Shown here: piece by piece, positions 2,315 through 25,403 of the stretch | Position numbering within the stretch: the stretch's first letter is position 1 | Layout of the letters: each line of letters starts with the position of its first letter | Assembly: GCA_964016885.1 (NCBI GenBank) | Contig: OZ024754.1 | Coordinates: 37,634,001-37,698,000 of the forward strand | Length of the DNA stretch: 64,000 nt | Direction of reading: 5' to 3' | Origin: Eledone cirrhosa | Taxonomy: Eukaryota | Made by a program: the position numbers and the translations under genes | Notes under the pieces: model-generated | The model's input: the letters and a program-made list of their open reading frames with translations, nothing else | What the model was told of the DNA's origin: nothing | Database searches by the model: none

Positions 2315-2674
2315 ACATACACACACACACACACACATACACACACACACACACAGAGAAACAAGCACACATAGACACAATACGTATTCGAATTCGTAGA
2401 GGTATACGACTAAATACATAATTCATTTTACAAGGATTTGCTACAAAGAACATGGCTGAACGCAACAACACCAACAACATTAAGGAAGTACCGAAGAAAA
2501 AAATCAAGAAAGGTAAACAACATTTACATACATACATCTTTTATTCGAATTCGTAGAGATTGCCAACTAAATACAAAATTCATTTTACAAGGATTTGCTA
2601 GTAGCAACATGGCTGAACACAAGGACACCAACATCATTGAGGAAGTACCGAAGAAAAACGACAGGAAAGGTAAA

Positions 2675-3535
2675 GTACAGGACGATACAAATATGAAAGA
2701 ATAGTATTTAACTAATGTATTGGTACGCGATGGGGCCCACCCACAGCCCCGGCGGACAGAATGGAGAAGGCGTTTCCCTGGAGAACGGCAAGGGAGACGC
2801 GCTGGAAAAGCCACTCCAACTCGTGGGGCTCACACCTGCGGCTGGCCAGCTCAGCGCCTATGGTGGTGAGTAAGGAGGTAGCCCTGGGGCCGAGGACACC
2901 AGAAGTTTCCACTGCTGGGAAGGGAAGCCTGCAGCGTCCAAGCCATGCTTAATGACCTCGTTGAGGGCAGTATGGCGTGGAATGCGGCCGGCACTGTGGT
3001 GACAGGAAAGCGGGTGGAAGCCGAAAGAGCCCACGGTGGAACCGCAGCGACATTGGTGTGGCTGGCAGATCCGGAAGCCGAGCCTCATGGAAACGCCGAT
3101 TCGCAGGCTATGGTTGTCTAGCTGCGTGCCAGTGGAGAAGGAGGGCAGAGCATGGAGCCAGGCACCACTGCGGGGTTTGGAGGCCGCACGAAAACAAGCA
3201 AGGCGGTGCTGGTCGAGCTGGCGCGTGAGCCTGTCTGAGGCCAGGCTGCACTGGATGGCATCCCAAGTGCTTTGGGGGGACTTGACGCCAAGAGGGGGAG
3301 CTTATCATGGGTGATGTCTCGGCCGCAGTCAGAGTTGTTGCCTCAGAGGACACTGTCCTCCAACCCACCGAGGAGATCCTGGCTGCTCTGCGGCTCAAAC
3401 ACCCTGAGCCACCCACTGATCTCAGACCCATACCCCCACCGACCTCCACCTGCTCCTTGTGACTATTGATGCAGATATCATGTCATCCATTAGGTCCTTC
3501 CCAGCTAGCAGCTGCGGAGGTGTTGATGGTCACCT
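2675..3535 (-). mobile_element. CRE-clade non-LTR retrotransposon 3' fragment (degenerate)
   Basis: GC-rich insert; minus-strand peptides RLG..ICQPHQCRCG...HPLSC....GRIPRH..LN (zinc knuckle plus RH) and ET.G.LG...WLFQRVSLAVLQGNA, typical of the CRE RLE C-terminus; sits between gtaaa and caaaattt of a monomer. Confidence 0.75.
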
Positions 3536-4042
3536 AACAAAATTTACATACATACATACATACATCTTTTATTCGAATTCGTAGAGATACCCGACTAAAT
3601 ACATAATTCATTTTACAAGGATCTCTTACAAAGAACATAGATGGACCCAACAGCACCAACAACATTAACAAACTACCGAAGAAAAAAATCAAGAAAGGTA
3701 AACAAAATGTTCATACATACATACATCTTCTATTCGAATTCGTAGAGATATCCGACTAAATACATAATTCATTTTACAAGGATTTGCTACAAACAACATG
3801 GCTGAACACGACTCCAACAACATTGAGAAAGTAGCGAAGGAAAACAACGAGAAAGGTAAACAAAATTTACATACAAACATACATCTTTTATTCGAATTCG
3901 TAGAGATATCCGACTAAATACATAATTCATTTTACAAGGATTTGCTATAAACAACATGGCTGAACACGACTCCAACAACATTGAGAAAGTAGCGAAGGAA
4001 AACAACGAGAAAGGTAAACAAAATTTACATACATACATACAT

Positions 4043-4717
4043 AGTGGCTGCCAACTCGTTTTCGAGTACGGCCACTACTTTATATCCATGTAGGAGAACC
4101 CCTACCGATGCGCTGAACGAGTGTGACTTTTTAGTCCAGCCAGCGACTTGAAAACTCTGGTACAAACACTACACTTGTGACAATTATTGATACATAGTGC
4201 TGGGCCCTTGGTACCATGTGACGACAAGTGCAGAGAGATATAAAGTAATGCCTGTGCCGTGAAGCTTTTATAGAGAGCAATGGCACTGCACAAAGCCAGT
4301 CCCACTCTCTTAACCAAGATGATATTTACCAAAAAGAAGAACAAGTCAACATCATTGGATACCATCAGGGTTGCAGGCTCTGACAAAGGCTAGGGGCCCT
4401 TCACTCCCAGTGGTTTAACCGCGCGATCGGGTGTCCAGCCTGACTATTTCTATGTCCCCGCGCATATACACATGCACCCATGTATATACACATATACATA
4501 CATATTTACATGTGTATATACATATTTACACACTTTTGGATGGCCGTTGGCTCTTATGAGTTCTTCCGCCCTTTGTCAGGTTTTGTTTTTTGTCCTGCAG
4601 AGTGTCCAAAATCACCAAGTAAAGTTGGTGGGGTTGCTGGTTTATTCGCCGATGACCCGACCATGCGACATGTTGTACTGGGTTACATGTTACCAGTAGC
4701 ACTCAAGAGTGACTCGA
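4043..4717 (-). mobile_element. Bipartite RTE-derived non-autonomous element (diverged copy)
   Basis: Homologous to 27821-28428; C2H2 tail [23 protein letters not shown]; flanked by (TACA)n. Confidence 0.7.
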
Positions 4718-5407
4718 CATACATACATACATACATACATCTTTTATTCGAATTCGTAGAGATATCCGACTAAATACATAATTAATTTTTCTAGGATTTG
4801 CTACAAACGGCATGGCTGAAGACAACGACACCAATAAGATGAAGGAAGTACAGAAGGATAACAACAAGAAAGGTAAAAAAAATTTTTTCAGAATATATAT
4901 GGTTTTGGGGGGTCTATCTCCAAAACCATAGGAGGAGTTCGTGAACAAAGAAACAAACAGACAGGAACTACAACTTTATACATATTTGAGAAGGAAGTAA
5001 GGTTGTATACAAAAGAGAAGTTATAGAGAAAAAGTGGAATTAGAAATAGCACGGAAAATATATTTTAAGCATCTGTTTATCTTTTTTTCTACTTTTTTTT
5101 TTTTTTAAATAAAAGGTGTTTTATAATGTATATATAAAAAAAAAATATTTTATATATTTTATATACATTATAAAACTCCTTTAAAAAAAAAAAATTGTTC
5201 CTCTCATCTTTTCAATAATTGTTTCTACTTTTGGCACAAGGCCAGTAATTATCACAGTGTATTACAGGTACTTTATTTTATCGACCCCGTAAGGATGAAA
5301 AGCAATAATGTCACTTTGACGGATCAAAGAAGAAAAAAAGAAAAACAGATCCTTAAATATATTTTCCGTGCTATTTCCAATTCCACTCTCTCTCTGTCTC
5401 CACCCCC

Positions 5408-6390: not shown

Positions 6391-6627
6391 GATATTAAAC
6401 AAATGGAAACTATATTTATAAAACCATATTTATTTCATTATACATATTTCGGGGATACCATATTAAAAATATGGCATGCCTTCTTCAGACAAAATACAAT
6501 ATATAAGCAGTTTTATAAATAATTTTACGTCCGCTTTTCCCTGCTTATATATATGTCCGTATGTGGTTGACGGCTGAGAAGAAAGAGTAATCGTATTCAT
6601 ATATTCATTCACATTTCAGAAATCGCA

Positions 6628-6834
6628 ATGTCTGAAGAAGATCGACATGAAAACAAGCTATCATACCACTCAGAGTTGCCATTAATTTTCTTCACCCCTG
6701 TGATGCTCTTGTCCCAGACAATGTTGCATTTCTACGTGGACTGGCGAATAGGAAAGAATTACTATCAATACCAAAATACCGCCTTCTCTTCGAATTGTAA
6801 CCTTCGCCTCTTTCCTGTAAGAATTCAACATAAG
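6628..6834 (+). CDS. SLC46-family (PCFT-like) MFS transporter, exon 1
   Basis: ATG 6628, MSEEDRH...ELPLIFFTPVMLLSQ...NC...IQHK, donor AAG|gtaaga at 6835; 207 nt, phase 0 matches exon 2. Confidence 0.8.
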
Positions 6835-7847: not shown

Positions 7848-8379
7848 GTAACGTCTATCCTCCGAACTAGCATGGGTTGGACGGGTTTGTCCCACTTGAG
7901 GCAAGATTGTTCAATTAAAGATATTTAGAATCAGCCGACTTTTATATAACAGATGGCAAGCACTCAACGGTATTTGTTCATCTGGAGTTTTGTTATAATA
8001 ATTGTTTCTACATCTGGCACAAGGCCAGCAATTACTCAGTACATTACTGGAACTTTATTTTATCGACCCCGTAAGGATGAAAGGCAAAGTTAACCTCGGC
8101 GGGATTAGAACTCAGAATGGCAAGGACCGTAACTCAATGCGTCAAAGCATGGTTCCCGAATCTCTACCGATACTGCCAATCCACTGCCCTACTTTAGTCC
8201 ATCCCTATTCATTTTACTATACGTATTTCGAAGACGTATGGCTTGTGTACAACATAAGTCAAAATTTGTTCTCTTCAGATAAAATCCACAGGAGATTTAT
8301 GTTATACATATGCCATACATCTTCGAAATACGTACAGCAAAGTAAATAGGGATGGACTAAAGTAACTGTCTGTTTTGTT

Positions 8380-8988: not shown

Positions 8989-9325
8989 GTGAGGTATGGA
9001 TGTCAAAACAGCGTCTAGGTCCACCAGCGATGCCATTGATAGCGTTGGCTACAAATAAAACCTCCAATGGAAGTGTATAGTAGATCGTCACTGCACTTAA
9101 AACGATTTTCATGATAGTGCCGGTCAAAGACCGTAATACATTCACTGAGCGAAGTATATGGTTGCAAATTCGGCATGCTGGTGTCTTCGACCGGCACTAT
9201 CATGAAAATCGTTTTAAGTGCAGTGACGATCTACTATACACTTCCATTGGAGGTCTTATTTGTAGCCAACGCTATCAATGGCATCACTGGTGGACCTAGA
9301 TTCTGTTTTGAAATCCATACCTCAC
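8989..9325. repeat. Inverted repeat built from a diverged copy of SLC46 exon 2 (arms 8989-9131 and 9183-9325)
   Basis: 9133-9297 matches 10349-10513 in sense; 9017-9131 is its reverse complement. Confidence 0.9.
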
Positions 9326-10273: not shown

Positions 10274-11123
10274 GTGCAACGTTTGACAGCTTTATGGATA
10301 ACAGATATGTTAGCTTTGGAATCCTTTCTGAGCTTTTTTACAATATTTGTAATACATTCACTGAGCGAAGTATATAGTCGCAAATTCGGCATGCTGGTGT
10401 CTTTAAGCGGCACTATCATGAAAATCGTTTTAAGTGCAATGACGATCTACTATACACTTCCATTGGAGGTCTTATTTGTAGCCAGCGCTATTAATGGCAT
10501 CACTGGTGGACCTGCGAGCTTTATCACTTGTGCTGTGTCACAGATTACCGATACGTACCCGCACAAAGATAAGAGCTGCCGTAAATTTATAAGAGCTCAA
10601 AATTTTTCATTTGGAATAGCCGGCCTTTTTACAATTTATTTCGGCTTAATCATAGAAATCTTTGGCTATTTCTCCGCTTGCGTATTTTTGCTCCCTTTAG
10701 CTGTACTCAATATAGTCATCATTCTACACCTTCCAGATAACTCCACACAGAAGGAAGTCGATTGGAACTTTTCTAAAATTAAAACGTCGTTTATAAAGAT
10801 ATGGAACGTAATGACTATTAGGAAACGGTTGTTGTTGTTCTTATTCATATCAGCCTCACCCATTAGTTATATGCCTCTTGGAGGACAGACTTTCTATACC
10901 ACACAATTATTTATTAACAGACCATTTTGCACCAGCATTTTCTTCACCGGATTTACTTTGGCTATTTCCGCTTTCACTTTTTTAACACAAAATTACTACT
11001 CAGACCGACTGAATAAACCAGGTTTTTCGGTCAATACTATAATTGCTGGAAAACTGTTTGTCGGATACCTTAGCAGTCTCATCATTACAATAGCAGCAAA
11101 AAGAAATACATATTATGATGCAG
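10274..11123 (+). CDS. SLC46-family MFS transporter, exon 2
   Basis: Long polypyrimidine tract and tag|GTG acceptor; multi-TM ORF with SE.Y.RK (A-motif-like), GITGG and QITD motifs of SLC46; donor GCAG|gtataa, phase 1. Confidence 0.85.
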
Positions 11124-11583: not shown

Positions 11584-11697
11584 GTACTCATTGTATATAT
11601 ATATGTGTGTGTGTGTATGTATAAATGTATGTATATATATATATATATATATATTTGCTTTGCGAGCTTTTTGATATGAAATCGTGTGTCGAAACAA

Positions 11698-12242
11698 ATA
11701 TTGTTATACTTGGGGAGGGTCATATTGTTGTAATAATATTGCCAGGAATAATAACAGAACACACTCACTGTTTAGTTGGTTTTCGCTTCTGTATCTTTTA
11801 TATCTCCACAGTTAATTCTTTCGGTCCTCAATGTTTACCATTGACTGACCAACGGTCAAAAATACAGATATAATATAGATATAAACACATATATAGTCTA
11901 ACAAAGTTCTTTCGTTGCCCATCTGCAGCATCGTCAGTGGTGCTATTATGTTCCTCCTGTTGTATTGTATATCTACAATACAATACAACAGGAGGAACAT
12001 AATAGTACCACTGACGTTGCTGCAGATGTGCAACGAAAGAACTTTGTTAGACTATATATGTGTTTATATCTATATTATATCTGTATTTTTGACCGTTGGT
12101 CAGTCAATGGTAAACATTGAGGACCGAAAGAATTAACTGTGGAGATATAAAAGATACAGAAGCGAAAACCAACTAAACAGTGAGTGTGTTCTGTTATTAT
12201 TCCTGGCAATATTATTGCAACAATATGAACCTTCCCAAGTAT

Positions 12243-12250
<8 letters not shown>
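11698..12250. mobile_element. ~550-bp near-perfect palindrome (arms ~273 bp, 7-nt loop), probably the inverted end of a Penelope-like element
   Basis: Arms are reverse complements; right arm is homologous to 16880-17121, which lies 3' of a GIY-YIG remnant; abuts (TA)n. Confidence 0.75.
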
Positions 12251-12329
<79 letters not shown>

Positions 12330-12363
12330 TATGCAGAGCTGTAATACATTAAAAATTAATGTA

Positions 12364-12602
12364 TTACAGTCATTTCTACCTCTACAGAACCACATGTTTC
12401 ATCAGAGTTTATTAAAACGCTTAATAGTAATTGACACAGAAAATATTAGGAACATCTAATACATAAAATCACTTCACAAAATGCAAAAGTTTCAAAAGGT
12501 TTTATCTATTAGATCTTCCTAATATTTTCTGTGTGAATTACTATTAAGTGTTTTAATAAACTCTGATGAAACATGTGGCTCAGTACAGGTAGAAATGGCT
12601 GT
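12364..12602. repeat. AT-rich inverted repeat with CTGATGA..GAAA motif
   Basis: ccacatgtttcatcagagtttattaaaac.cttaatagtaatt.acacagaaaatattagga vs its reverse complement at 12507-12579. Confidence 0.75.
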
Positions 12603-13904: not shown

Positions 13905-13988
13905 TTTTGGTCAACAACAACGCTGTCTTTCTGATATTGTATCTGACCATCAGAACCATGTTACCTTCTCTTGAAATTAAATTGCACG
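13905..13988 (+). CDS. SLC46-family MFS transporter, exon 3
   Basis: actaac branch point and ctag acceptor; 84 nt, phase 1-1, VLVNNNAVFLILYLTIRTMLPSLEIKLH(G); donor gtaaag. Confidence 0.75.
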
Positions 13989-14605
13989 GTAAAGTTATCT
14001 TTATGAAAAATCTGAATCACTTGCTCCAATCTCTCTCACTCACTCACTCACTCACTCTCTCTGTCGCTCTCTCTCCCTCTGTCTCTCTCCTCTCTCTCTC
14101 AGTCACTCTCTTTCACTTCTTTTGTCTAATGTTCATTCACTGGTGTATGTCTCTCTGTCTCCACATCACTCTCACTCCCTCACCCCCTCTCTCTCCCCTC
14201 TCTCTCAGTCACTCTCTCTCACTTCTTTTGTCTAATGTTCTTTCACCGACTGTATGTCTCTCCGTTTTTTTCTTTCGTTTTCTCTCTATTTTTTTCTCTC
14301 ACTCTCTTTCGTTCTTTCACTGTCTATTTGTATCTCATCCCTCCCTCTCTATCTATGTATATATTTATCTCTATATATCTATCTATCTTTCACTGACTGC
14401 GTACATGCACATATACGTATCTGATATTTTGTTAAGTTTGTGTCTAAATCTAACCTTGGAGAGACATGCTACCTCCTCCTTCAAGCGAATGCTTACATGA
14501 GTGAACTCTACTAAAAGTATCCAAGAAGTCCAGTTGGGGAGTGTTCACCCGGGGACACTGGATTAATAGTCTGGAAACATAAATTTACATTCTGTCCCCT
14601 ATTTT

Positions 14606-14886
14606 AGTGTTCTCCAATCTTTTTTATACCACGGGCCGGCTTGATGCCAGACTCTCTTTCCGTGGTCGGTCCAGTAGTTGCTCATATGTGTTATTTAAGT
14701 ACATTTCGCTAAAGAGAGCAATAATAAAAACAGAAATTTATTAAAGTAGATGATTATTGAATATTTAAACAAATCTTTTAAAATTAAAGTCCAATATTCA
14801 ATTTATCTATTATATAATATATAATTTTAAACAAGTTAATTATTTCTTTGTGGCCCGGTAGCAAATGATCTGTGACCTGGTGGTTC
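14606..14886. mobile_element. Probable hAT (Charlie-like) non-autonomous DNA transposon remnant
   Basis: Starts tagtgttctccaatctttttt..ccacgggccgg; ends gtggcccggtagcaaatgatc.gtgacc.ggtggtt. Confidence 0.4.
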
Positions 14887-14934
14887 CCCTATTTTACATA
14901 AGTTATATATTTCTTTTGTCTCTTTATTCTTTAG

Positions 14935-15091
14935 GTTATCTCTATGCCTTGTTGTTCACTATGAATTCATTTGGTACAACACTAATGTTACCTCTACTCA
15001 ATACGATATATTTGAAAACATTCACATACTTTCCTGGTGCTGTATTTTGCCCCTATGCCGCAATCCTTTTTATTGCTACAGTCATTCAAAT
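14935..15091 (+). CDS. SLC46-family MFS transporter, exon 4
   Basis: Pyrimidine tract and ttag acceptor; GYLYAL...LNTIYLKTFTYFPGAVF matches the SLC46 N.IY..T....PG..F motif; donor gtaagt, phase 2. Confidence 0.85.
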
Positions 15092-16696: not shown

Positions 16697-17119
16697 ATAC
16701 ACAAGTACAATAACAACAAACATATAAATACACACTAGTGAACAAAGATAGAATACAAAAACAAAAACACATACACTCAAACGCGAACACACACACCAAA
16801 CATTAAACACACATGCAAACGCATGCGCAGAGACAGAGACAAGAAGAAATAAATACATTAAAAAAATGAAAGGCTTTACAATACAACGGGAGGAAACATA
16901 ATAGTACCACTGATGCTGTCGCATATGTGTGATGAAAGAACTTTGATATATATTTATATCTGTATTTTTAACCGTTGGTCAATCAATGATAAACATTGAT
17001 TGCCAGATAAATTAACTATGGAGATATAAAAGATACAGAAAGAAAACCAACCCAACCCAAACAGTGAGTGTGCTCTGTTATTATTTCTGGCAATATTATA
17101 ACAATATGACCCTCCCCAA

Positions 17120-18065: not shown

Positions 18066-18111
18066 TGGACTGCGGTTTTCAGAAGTTTGGAAGAAAATAT
18101 GGAGTCATTAA
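18066..18111 (+). CDS. SLC46-family MFS transporter, exon 5 (terminal)
   Basis: ttttaacag acceptor, phase 2 gives (I)[14 protein letters not shown]; total CDS 1344 nt = 447 aa. Confidence 0.65.
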
Positions 18112-18189
18112 GGAGAAGCAGTGATAAAAACAGTGTTGCTAATAATTTCAAGAATTATTTACTGCTGCAATTTGGTCATCTACAAAAAG

Positions 18190-18195
18190 AATAAA
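18190..18195 (+). terminator. Candidate polyadenylation signal of SLC46-like gene
   Basis: AATAAA ~80 nt after the stop codon, followed by GT-rich sequence. Confidence 0.4.
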
Positions 18196-19688: not shown

Positions 19689-19767
19689 TTGTAATAAAAT
19701 GAAAACGAAATTTCATTTCTCACTCTTAGTACGGCACTTACTCAATTAATTATTTATATATATATAT

Positions 19768-19951
19768 AAATAATTTTGAAAACCGTACAATGCTTTAGAA
19801 AATTAAAAGGGATAAGATAATAACATTTTACCTTAGAAAACTTTATAATCCCAAATATTTTCGCATTTAAAAATTTACTAAGGTAACATTCTATTGTTAT
19901 CTTATCACTTTTGATTTTCTAATGCATTGTATGGTTTTCAAAATTATTTAA
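19768..19951. repeat. AT-rich inverted repeat
   Basis: aaataattttgaaaacc.tacaatgc.ttagaaaat.aaaag.gataagataa vs reverse complement. Confidence 0.8.
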
Positions 19952-20049
19952 ATTTGTGTTTCCTATTCAACAATGCCTCAAGCAAACTACAACACTCTGG
20001 GTTTTTTACAAAATGAAAAATAACCGAGGTGTCCTACACGAGTGAAAGT

Positions 20050-20267
20050 GTAAGGAAAAAAGATGAAATCGAAAATGCAACTGGAGTCTTATTTTTAAAT
20101 ATATATATATATTTATTTGGTTCCTTTACCGGTTTCGCAGTTCTTCTGCTTTTCAAAAGTAGAGTTGAGATGGAGGGTCTGTAGTTTTTCTCACATCTGG
20201 AACCAAATAAATATATATATTTAAAAAAAAATAAGACTCCAGTTGCATTTTCGATTTCATCTTTTTT

Positions 20268-20272
<5 letters not shown>
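20050..20272. repeat. Inverted repeat next to (TA)n with a degenerate hammerhead-like motif in the loop
   Basis: aaggaaaaaagatgaaatcgaaaatgcaactggagtcttattttt...ttggttcc vs reverse complement; minus-strand loop ttgaaaa-gcag-aagaa-ctgc-gaaaccggt. Confidence 0.75.
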
Positions 20273-23930: not shown

Positions 23931-24792
23931 ACGCACACGCACACACACAGATACATACGTACATGCGTGCATGTATGCATGCATGCATACATACATACAT
24001 ACATACATACAGTGTAAGTGTGTGTGTGTGTACATACATGCATACATACATACACACATACACACACACACACATACACAAACAGGCGCACACACATACA
24101 AACACACACAGATACACGCACATGCACACACACACACGCACGCACACAAACACACACGCAGACACTCAAGTTTATTCGAATTTGTAGGGATATCCGAGTA
24201 AATACATAATTCATTTTACAAGGATTTGTTACAAACAACATGGCTGAACGCAACAACACCAACAGCATTAAGGAAGAACAGAAGGAAAACAACGAGAAAG
24301 GTAAACAAAATTTACATGCATACATACATACATACATACATACATACATACATACATACATACATACATACATACATACATACATACATACAGATATACA
24401 TACATCATTTATTCGAATTCGTAGAGGTATCCAACTAAATACATTATTCATTTTACAAGGATTTGCTACAAACAACATGGCTGAACACAGCAAGACCAGC
24501 AACATTAAGGAAGCAATGAAGAAACTCAGCGAGAAAGGTAAACAAAATTTACATACATACATACATACAAACATCTTTTTGAATTCGTAGAGATATCTGA
24601 CTAAATACATAATTCATTTTACACGAATCTGCTATAATCAGCAAGGCTGAACACAAGGGCACAAAAATCATTAAAGAAGTAGCGAAGAAAAACGACAAGA
24701 AAGCTATACAAAATTTACATAAATACATACAAAAATACATACATACATACATACATACATACATACATACATACATACATACATACATACAT

Positions 24793-25403
24793 GGTGGCTG
24801 CCAACTCGTTTTCGAGTACGGCCACCACTTTATATCCATGTAGGAGAACCCCTACCGATGCGCTAAACAAGTGTGACTTTTTAGTCCAGCCAGTGACTTG
24901 AAAACTCTGGTACAAACACTACACTTGTGACAATTATTGACACACATAGTGCTGGGCCCATAGTACCATGTGACGACAAGTGCAGGGAGATCTCCAGATA
25001 TAAAGCAATGCCTGTGCCGTGAAGCTTTTATAGTGAGCAAAGGCACTGCACAAAGCCAGTCCCACTCTCTTAACCAAGATAATATTTACCAAAAAGAAGA
25101 ACAAGTCAACATCATTGGATACCATCAGGATTGCAGGTGTTATATCAGAGTTTTCCTTCTCCTACAATTCTGCCTTGACAAAGGCTAAGGGGTCATCTCT
25201 CCCAGTGATTTGGGATGGCCATTGACTCTAAAGAGCTCATTTGCCCTTTGACAGGTTTTGTTTTTAGTCCTGCAGGATGTCCAAAGTCACCCTCCCTCAC
25301 CAAGAAACCTTGGTGGGGTTGCCAGTTTAGTCGCCAACGACCCGACCATGGGACAGGTTGTACTGGGATACATGTTACCAGTAGCACCAACTGGTGACCT
25401 GAC
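24793..25403 (-). mobile_element. Bipartite RTE-derived non-autonomous element
   Basis: RTE-type 5'UTR motif ggagaaggaaaactctga plus C2H2 end, CTCG-AAAA-CGAG hairpin and (ATGT)n tail. Confidence 0.7.

Follow-up and report, generated by a model that had tools for sequence, protein, structure and literature searches.

Tandem exon-intron units that vary in copy number or are used alternatively make up the Dscam clusters, the apo(a) kringles and the Olduvai/NBPF repeats. The locus described here, from the cephalopod Eledone cirrhosa, is likewise a set of predicted tandem exon-intron units, but those systems repeat host-derived folded domains, whereas the repeated piece here is the start region of a retroelement. 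A second point of reference is provided by Lyosin (L1 ORF1-MYL4) and BCNT-p97, in which a sense-oriented piece of a LINE open reading frame (ORF) is spliced as a terminal coding exon; in BCNT-p97, tandem gene duplication and LINE insertion are combined (PMC12129022). A single exon keeps a folded LINE domain in both cases and transcripts are shown, and Lyosin is under purifying selection (PMC12129022). Our locus resembles these two in that a sense LINE ORF piece is predicted to serve as a host coding exon, and differs in that the piece consists of 25 low-complexity codons, is present as 6 to 240 predicted exon-intron units per gene and has an excess of replacement changes. The general mechanisms of tandem exon duplication are covered by PMC2592719. 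By analogy, the locus is predicted to work like LINE-derived coding exons that subsequently underwent tandem exon duplication. Exonization of a transposable element (TE) and tandem duplication of exons are both familiar on their own, and here the two would act on one unit; in the literature searched, which included few subscription journals and no supplements, we came across no account of this locus, nor of any tandem array of coding exons derived from a TE. The schistosome MEG genes are also comparable: their exons are at most 36 nt long, their proteins carry signal peptides and TEs flank the exons (PMC8293314). Series of short, symmetric exons, a high replacement rate (dN/dS) and TE-rich surroundings are common to both, but here predicted TE-derived exons of 75 or 78 nt precede a multi-pass transporter. 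We considered and rejected the classification of the locus as a schistosome-type MEG, given the 75/78-nt exon length and a predicted tail that lacks a hydrophobic window.

Cassette arrays and their host transporter units

The window analyzed is a 64,000-nt stretch of contig OZ024754.1 (positions 37,634,001 to 37,698,000, forward strand), and positions below are counted from its first nucleotide. Six arrays, with 6, 240, 44, 32, 12, and 29 cassettes, give a total of 363 in the 404 kb around the window. The arrays are separated by collinear blocks of 22 to 31 kb, each of which holds a transporter, arranged in tandem. Each array lies at the 5' end of an SLC46/PCFT-like unit, with its cassettes in phase with the next exon, and the repeated unit pairs the cassette with a predicted intron of 76 to 90 nt that contains a TACA run. 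The paralogs are only about 2% to 4% apart. Array 2 (24223–64000, plus strand, continuing beyond the window to 83529) comprises 240 cassettes in all and forms the 5' part of the next paralog.

The first array consists of six plus-strand cassettes: cassette 1 at 2435–2512 (78 nt, phase 1-1), cassette 2 at 2592–2669 (78 nt, preceded by a 79-nt intron), cassette 3 at 3620–3697 (78 nt), cassette 4 at 3781–3855 (75 nt), cassette 5 at 3939–4013 (75 nt), and cassette 6 at 4795–4872 (78 nt), with spacers of 79, 950, 83, 83, and 781 nt between them. As the original prediction had stated, all six are flanked by AG and GT, four measure 78 nt and two 75 nt, and none contains a stop, all six being open in the phase-1 frame. 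The two peptides it quoted were correct, and the last cassette has the TTTTTCTAG acceptor reported at 4795. Cassette 1 holds the retroelement's own ATG, which is the first in-frame methionine of the gene 1 model, and cassettes of this type also open arrays 2 to 4. A motif match at 16706 proved false.

The six had been described as an ancient version of the array, far more diverged than the rest. We found neither: their mean pairwise exon identity is 0.817 versus 0.799 when distinct monomers of the main array are compared, the other arrays range from 0.77 to 0.81, and cassettes 4 and 5 differ by a single base. In the cassette tree, the six are scattered and lie next to members of arrays 2 and 5, with 5 label changes, 3 of them forced by starred branches, and cassette 6 is sister to the cassette that ends array 2. 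Monophyly of the six is not formally rejected (p-AU 0.063).

Two spacers carry insertions. The first, a high-copy sequence at 2675–3535 (minus strand), starts 5 nt past a donor GT and has AA on either side; a Pfam search with it returned nothing and the Atlas gave no result, and by a motif we tentatively take it to be CRE-like. The second, at 4043–4716 (no strand assigned), is a very high-copy sequence inside a TACA run that is tentatively RTE-like, again by a motif, and Pfam gave a sub-threshold C2H2 finger. The spacer location and very high copy number claimed for a CRE fragment and an RTE-derived element were borne out, and the two labels themselves are tentative. Because 20 of 23 copies of the second insertion abut TACA, its landing in a spacer reflects target preference. 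This element, which looks non-autonomous, is present at roughly 10^5 times single-copy depth, and inserts at TACA runs, also occurs at 24794, 27822, 32192, 42073, 58723, and 62045 and in many spacers of the other arrays. The spacers of array 6 contain further TACA-associated elements.

Downstream of the cassettes, the gene 1 model continues on the plus strand with predicted exon A (6620–6834, phase 1 to 0), whose frame agrees with that of the cassettes and which supplies a separate ATG (MSEE) together with the first membrane helix. It is followed by predicted exon B (10274–11123), which matches MFS_1 (Pfam PF07690, E 5e-10), by predicted exons B2 (13905–13988) and C (14935–15091) of the gene model, and by a predicted last exon (18066–18195) with a stop at 18109–18111 and AATAAA at 18190. 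A profile of relatives matches the PCFT structure PDB 7bc6 (E 2e-121), and the host gene body is 40% identical to LOC106869723 of Octopus bimaculoides and about 30% to named PCFT-like proteins; a single-sequence PDB search with the O. bimaculoides homolog gave no useful match. From these similarities, the host genes can be assigned to the SLC46/PCFT-like MFS transporters as a divergent branch. They resemble SLC46/PCFT in the MFS_1 gene body and the PCFT profile match and differ from it in their divergence and in their predicted long N-terminal repeat tails. By a crude hydropathy measure, the host protein has 8 windows over threshold, versus the twelve helices of SLC46/PCFT.

Exon B is intact in five copies. 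Its codon differences between paralogs run at roughly one synonymous for every four replacement, which is close to neutral, and it differs by 1.5% to 3.5% among units, mostly through replacement changes. Across the six units, identity is 98% to 100% for exons B2 and C and for the intron sequence leading up to C (13905–15091). Exons A and B are missing from unit 5 beside an assembly gap (window-relative 178067–178266, right after array 5), and both may lie inside it; alternatively, unit 5 might be a deletion pseudogene. The intron before exon B contains a partial exon B copy as an inverted repeat (9017–9297, also in genes 2 to 4), which could fold into a hairpin able to pair with mRNA of the same gene. 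A distant match to exon B (42%) is located about 300 kb beyond the window, at contig positions 37997631–37997879 on the minus strand.

The source of the repeat unit

Searching 3.0 Gb of genome revealed single copies of the unit on other contigs. Kilobases of common sequence flank these solo copies, and a 36-mer taken from them has 572 exact dispersed matches. The flanks yielded one ORF that begins at the cassette's ATG and contains a reverse-transcriptase (RT) domain (RVT_1, E 6e-8), a CCHC knuckle, and the motifs RPD...VEVSCP...IIGALG, which may be endonuclease-like. The N-terminus of the element matches two RT proteins of ~1150 aa, and its nearest solved RTs are those of R2, a weak match (E 0.006); a single-sequence PDB search with the C-terminal piece gave no useful match. 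Sequence comparison identifies the cassette unit as a piece of this dispersed, apparently R4/Dong-like, RT element. The unit is composed of (TACA)n, ~53 nt of the 5' UTR end, the 75/78-nt segment, which corresponds to the first ~25 codons of the element ORF, and 14 nt more.

With a single RT ORF and a microsatellite target, the element appears to fit the R4/Dong clade. It has an RT and a microsatellite association, and no N-terminal zinc finger was seen, as in R4/Dong (PMC7998251), and its C-terminus may be endonuclease-like as well; the target here is (TACA)n, whereas the usual target in molluscs is (TAA)n (PMC7998251).

A 28-mer that lies upstream of the unit served to select 90 dispersed copies, and TACA runs stand at the 5' end in 79 of them. 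Twelve of the 90 were dropped for a missing anchor, and the 78 with both anchors were analyzed. AG is present in 71 of these 78, GT in 65, and an open frame in 58, and 47 keep AG, GT, frame, and openness together. The element therefore already carries the AG, GT, ATG, and frame of the cassettes. In addition, the last cassettes of arrays 2, 3, and 6 run on for ~265 nt into the element body, which is 5% to 8% from the nearest dispersed copy, and the tandem junction from element to TACA occurs 110 times in the genome, 110/110 at this locus. Since dispersed copies already have these signals, the junction is confined to this locus, and the last cassettes continue into the element, the direction was from element to array. 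The proposals that the unit began as a coding exon and that the locus records a gene-to-satellite transition are not supported.

The same evidence bears on whether an old host exon is decaying into a satellite, with the six cassettes as its ancient remnant, or, in a weaker form, whether the array was coding and its large array 2 part is now escaping into a satellite. Array 2 has the look of such decay, as it combines higher-order repeats with 40 copies that have a dead site and contains each of the three breaks found at the locus, and arrays 1 and 5 are small and have cassette types in common. Yet a dispersed retroelement as the source contradicts an origin from a host exon, the six are no more diverged than other cassettes, and the paralogs are too similar to suggest great age. 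The cassettes of array 2 that have both AG and GT also still lack internal stops (0 versus 7.3 expected). We regard this model, in either form, as highly improbable.

Selection on the cassette reading frame

Changes were counted between observed sequences along minimum spanning trees, and expected values were derived from the mutation spectrum of the dispersed copies. The resulting replacement/synonymous ratios are observed-over-expected counts, not codon-model estimates; cassettes are not independent, and conversion inflates the spanning-tree counts. Cassette length is a multiple of 3 in 362 of 363 cases, including the odd lengths of 51, 126, and 129 nt. None of the 321 cassettes with both AG and GT has an internal stop or frameshift and a single one is broken, by a junction stop, whereas 13 of 60 dispersed copies with both dinucleotides are broken. 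Both internal breaks fall among the 42 cassettes with dead splice sites (p 0.013). Over 580 spanning-tree changes, 19.1 internal stops were expected and none was found; the absence persisted on recent edges (0 versus 7.3) and when distinct codon alleles were counted, ignoring recurrence (0 versus 8.0). Under the same null, the dispersed copies gave ratios of 1.01 and 0.98, with 7 stops versus 4.7 expected and 13 versus 16.6, the dead-donor class gave 1 versus 1.2, and the two other frames had stops as expected. Splice dinucleotides changed 8 times versus 29.8 expected. Non-triplet indels in the unique part of the intron are a weak internal control, with 3 to 4 real types, 3 of the 7 apparent ones being alignment artefacts.

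These counts indicate that the reading frame is under selection at the scale of the locus; for the six cassettes alone, the effect is not significant. With 1.3 to 1.4 stops expected, their zero is within chance. Their changes at codon positions 1, 2, and 3 number 23, 15, and 9, versus 15.4, 13.9, and 17.7 expected, with 1 synonymous to 36 replacement changes (1 to 24 in ungapped pairs, p 0.017). The original prediction saw in the six the best internal evidence that the unit may still be a coding exon. The locus-wide statistics uphold the idea, but the six themselves do not carry it, as 47 of 78 dispersed copies are intact too.

A non-coding minisatellite derived from the element, lying in an intron or upstream, would have inherited AG, GT, and frame and could have spread them by concerted evolution. 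Such an array would look much like the six, which are within chance on their own; the signals pre-exist in the element at the frequencies given above, copies are non-independent, and change per site on spanning-tree edges is similar in exon and intron (8.3 versus 7.3). What it does not predict is that the deficits of stops and of synonymous changes should be specific to one frame while the controls behave neutrally. Nor does it predict that cassettes up to 35% from their source, with 5% in the intron, would still be open, that odd-length cassettes with functional sites would all be triplets, or that breaks would fall in the dead-donor class. We therefore consider a non-coding array quite unlikely.

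The kind of selection was not the one anticipated. An excess of third-position changes had been proposed as the diagnostic, and we observed a deficit instead, with 182 versus 209 expected over the locus, in the same direction as in the six (9 versus 17.7). Synonymous changes numbered 78 versus 136 expected, and replacement changes were in excess (387:78, ratio 1.59). The ratio was 2.49 on deep edges and 1.08 on recent ones, so that deep splits alone account for the excess of replacements. This suggests that selection does not conserve the sequence and instead favours amino-acid change. Across 27 cassette types, divergence from the element amounts to 17.6% for the exon and to 5.9% for the intron next to it, and in cassette 3 to 22% for the exon and 3% for the preceding intron. 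This contrast is tempered by the element itself, in which the corresponding segment varies more than the UTR (4.3% versus 2.4%), by the similar rates of exon and intron on spanning-tree edges, and by the near-neutral look of the transporter body between paralogs.

Two cassette groups deserve separate description. In arrays 2 and 3, the cassette at 24626 and 38 similar ones have CT in place of the donor GT and were amplified in a higher-order repeat; this class behaves neutrally and contains both internal breaks. A GC donor for the class was rejected on inspection, as it matches poorly and would shift the frame. In array 6 (window-relative 209699–212454), there are cassettes 27% to 35% from the element with introns at 5%, together with two fused cassettes of 126 and 129 nt and one of 51 nt, all in frame.

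Predicted splicing and the N-terminal tail

Our preferred reading, to which we give a probability of about two in three, is that the cassettes are spliced as chained symmetric phase-1 exons and form a long N-terminal tail. The unit came from the element and inherited from it AG, ATG, frame, and GT. One sense-strand insertion upstream of exon A would then have been exonized because its frame matched that of exon A. The tandem pattern shows that the exon was amplified together with its TACA intron, probably by unequal exchange at TACA runs, and diversified afterwards; duplication of the whole gene would have given rise to the six units, whose arrays grew and shrank separately. Judging from the statistics above, most cassettes would be read as protein, with selection removing stops, frameshifts, and lost splice sites and promoting amino-acid change. 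Each transcript may include many cassettes, those with dead donors being skipped, and the tail would most likely be a disordered regulatory or trafficking extension and not part of the transport core.

Models that join all AG+GT cassettes to the gene body through canonical sites are open in genes 1, 3, 4, and 6 (603, 1528, 1256, and 1233 aa, respectively). The gene 4 model runs via a cryptic acceptor, since a short deletion (window-relative 154674–154891) removes the exon A acceptor and ATG and leaves an in-frame cryptic AG; gene 4 is otherwise intact, including all 32 cassettes, and would need a cassette ATG. The gene 2 model stops at residue 5042, where the cassette at 82973 ends in T and creates a junction stop, and with its 40 dead-site cassettes gene 2 is thus not readable whole. 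In 4 of 5 genes the cassettes could be bypassed, since exon A supplies an ATG itself. A search based on conserved donor-like sites located no first exon or promoter. Reading through the introns as one ORF was rejected because the spacers are spread over all three length phases (124/104/129).

Instead of one long tail, the cassettes, as translated exons, could yield many short N-terminal variants if each transcript took up just one or a few of them, whether as alternative start exons, through mutual exclusion or through heavy skipping. All cassettes are symmetric, about half have an in-frame ATG (5/6, 111/200, 26/42, 17/32, and 14/29), and the splice signals, which are inherited, are weak, with an AAG acceptor and a short pyrimidine tract; gene 2 tolerates dead-donor copies and one junction stop, and the replacement excess resembles that of diversifying exon sets. 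All of this would suit such use. However, selection on one of 200 alternatives should be weak, and yet recent stops are absent where 7.3 are expected. Introns of 76 to 90 nt would also leave little room for selector elements, and no separate promoters were seen. We think few-at-a-time use unlikely.

Under the preferred reading of chained exons, the predicted tail of gene 1 has 154 aa, with 19% K, 19% N, and 10% E, and is near neutral; no hydrophobic window was found in it (maximum -0.49). It would likely be a hydrophilic, K/N/E-rich extension of about 150 residues on the predicted cytoplasmic N-terminus. A word-based search with exon B found no protein with such a tail among candidates of 497 to 2000 aa, which is weak evidence of absence because a close-length word search with exon B was also empty. 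Three runs from one sample cover 2385–4470, including five of the six cassettes, and among the 15 joints listed of 52 none joins cassette splice sites; these runs cover introns and insertions as DNA would and have no bearing on expression. Nor does the finding that no RNA run was listed for exon B.

A bolder extension, which we put forward tentatively and consider doubtful, is that the TE start-codon region has become a self-expanding exon module whose combinatorially spliced, positively selected tails range from 150 to about 5,000 residues. The locus might then, with equal reserve, represent a MEG- or Dscam-like diversity system built wholly from a TE in a young cephalopod transporter family. 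No less speculatively, its TACA-rich introns might both drive amplification and absorb further TACA-targeting insertions.

The record is unusually complete, with hundreds of dispersed copies as a neutral control, 363 exon candidates, and six young paralogs. If RNA confirms the chained exons, 25 retrotransposon codons would have become a new protein repeat, diversified under selection within a few percent of divergence. Having just six cassettes, gene 1 offers the simplest test case. The locus is also a warning that a repeat which any masker would label satellite or LINE may be coding.

An inverted, diverged paralog lies upstream of the window on the minus strand (contig about 37617000–37627150, window-relative -17023 to -6848) and is 41% identical to exon B. 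A charged stretch of 162 residues containing (KEENG)n is encoded in its exon A, where no methionine precedes the first helix. This paralog appears to have gained a charged N-terminal tail independently in the same place. At the N-terminal extension site, a short acidic repeat is present in the O. bimaculoides homolog; an isoform that is 26 aa longer contains no cassette. Finally, the introns contain palindromic fold-back elements at 8190–8364, 11597–12332, 12366–12602, 19764–19953, and 20051–20272.
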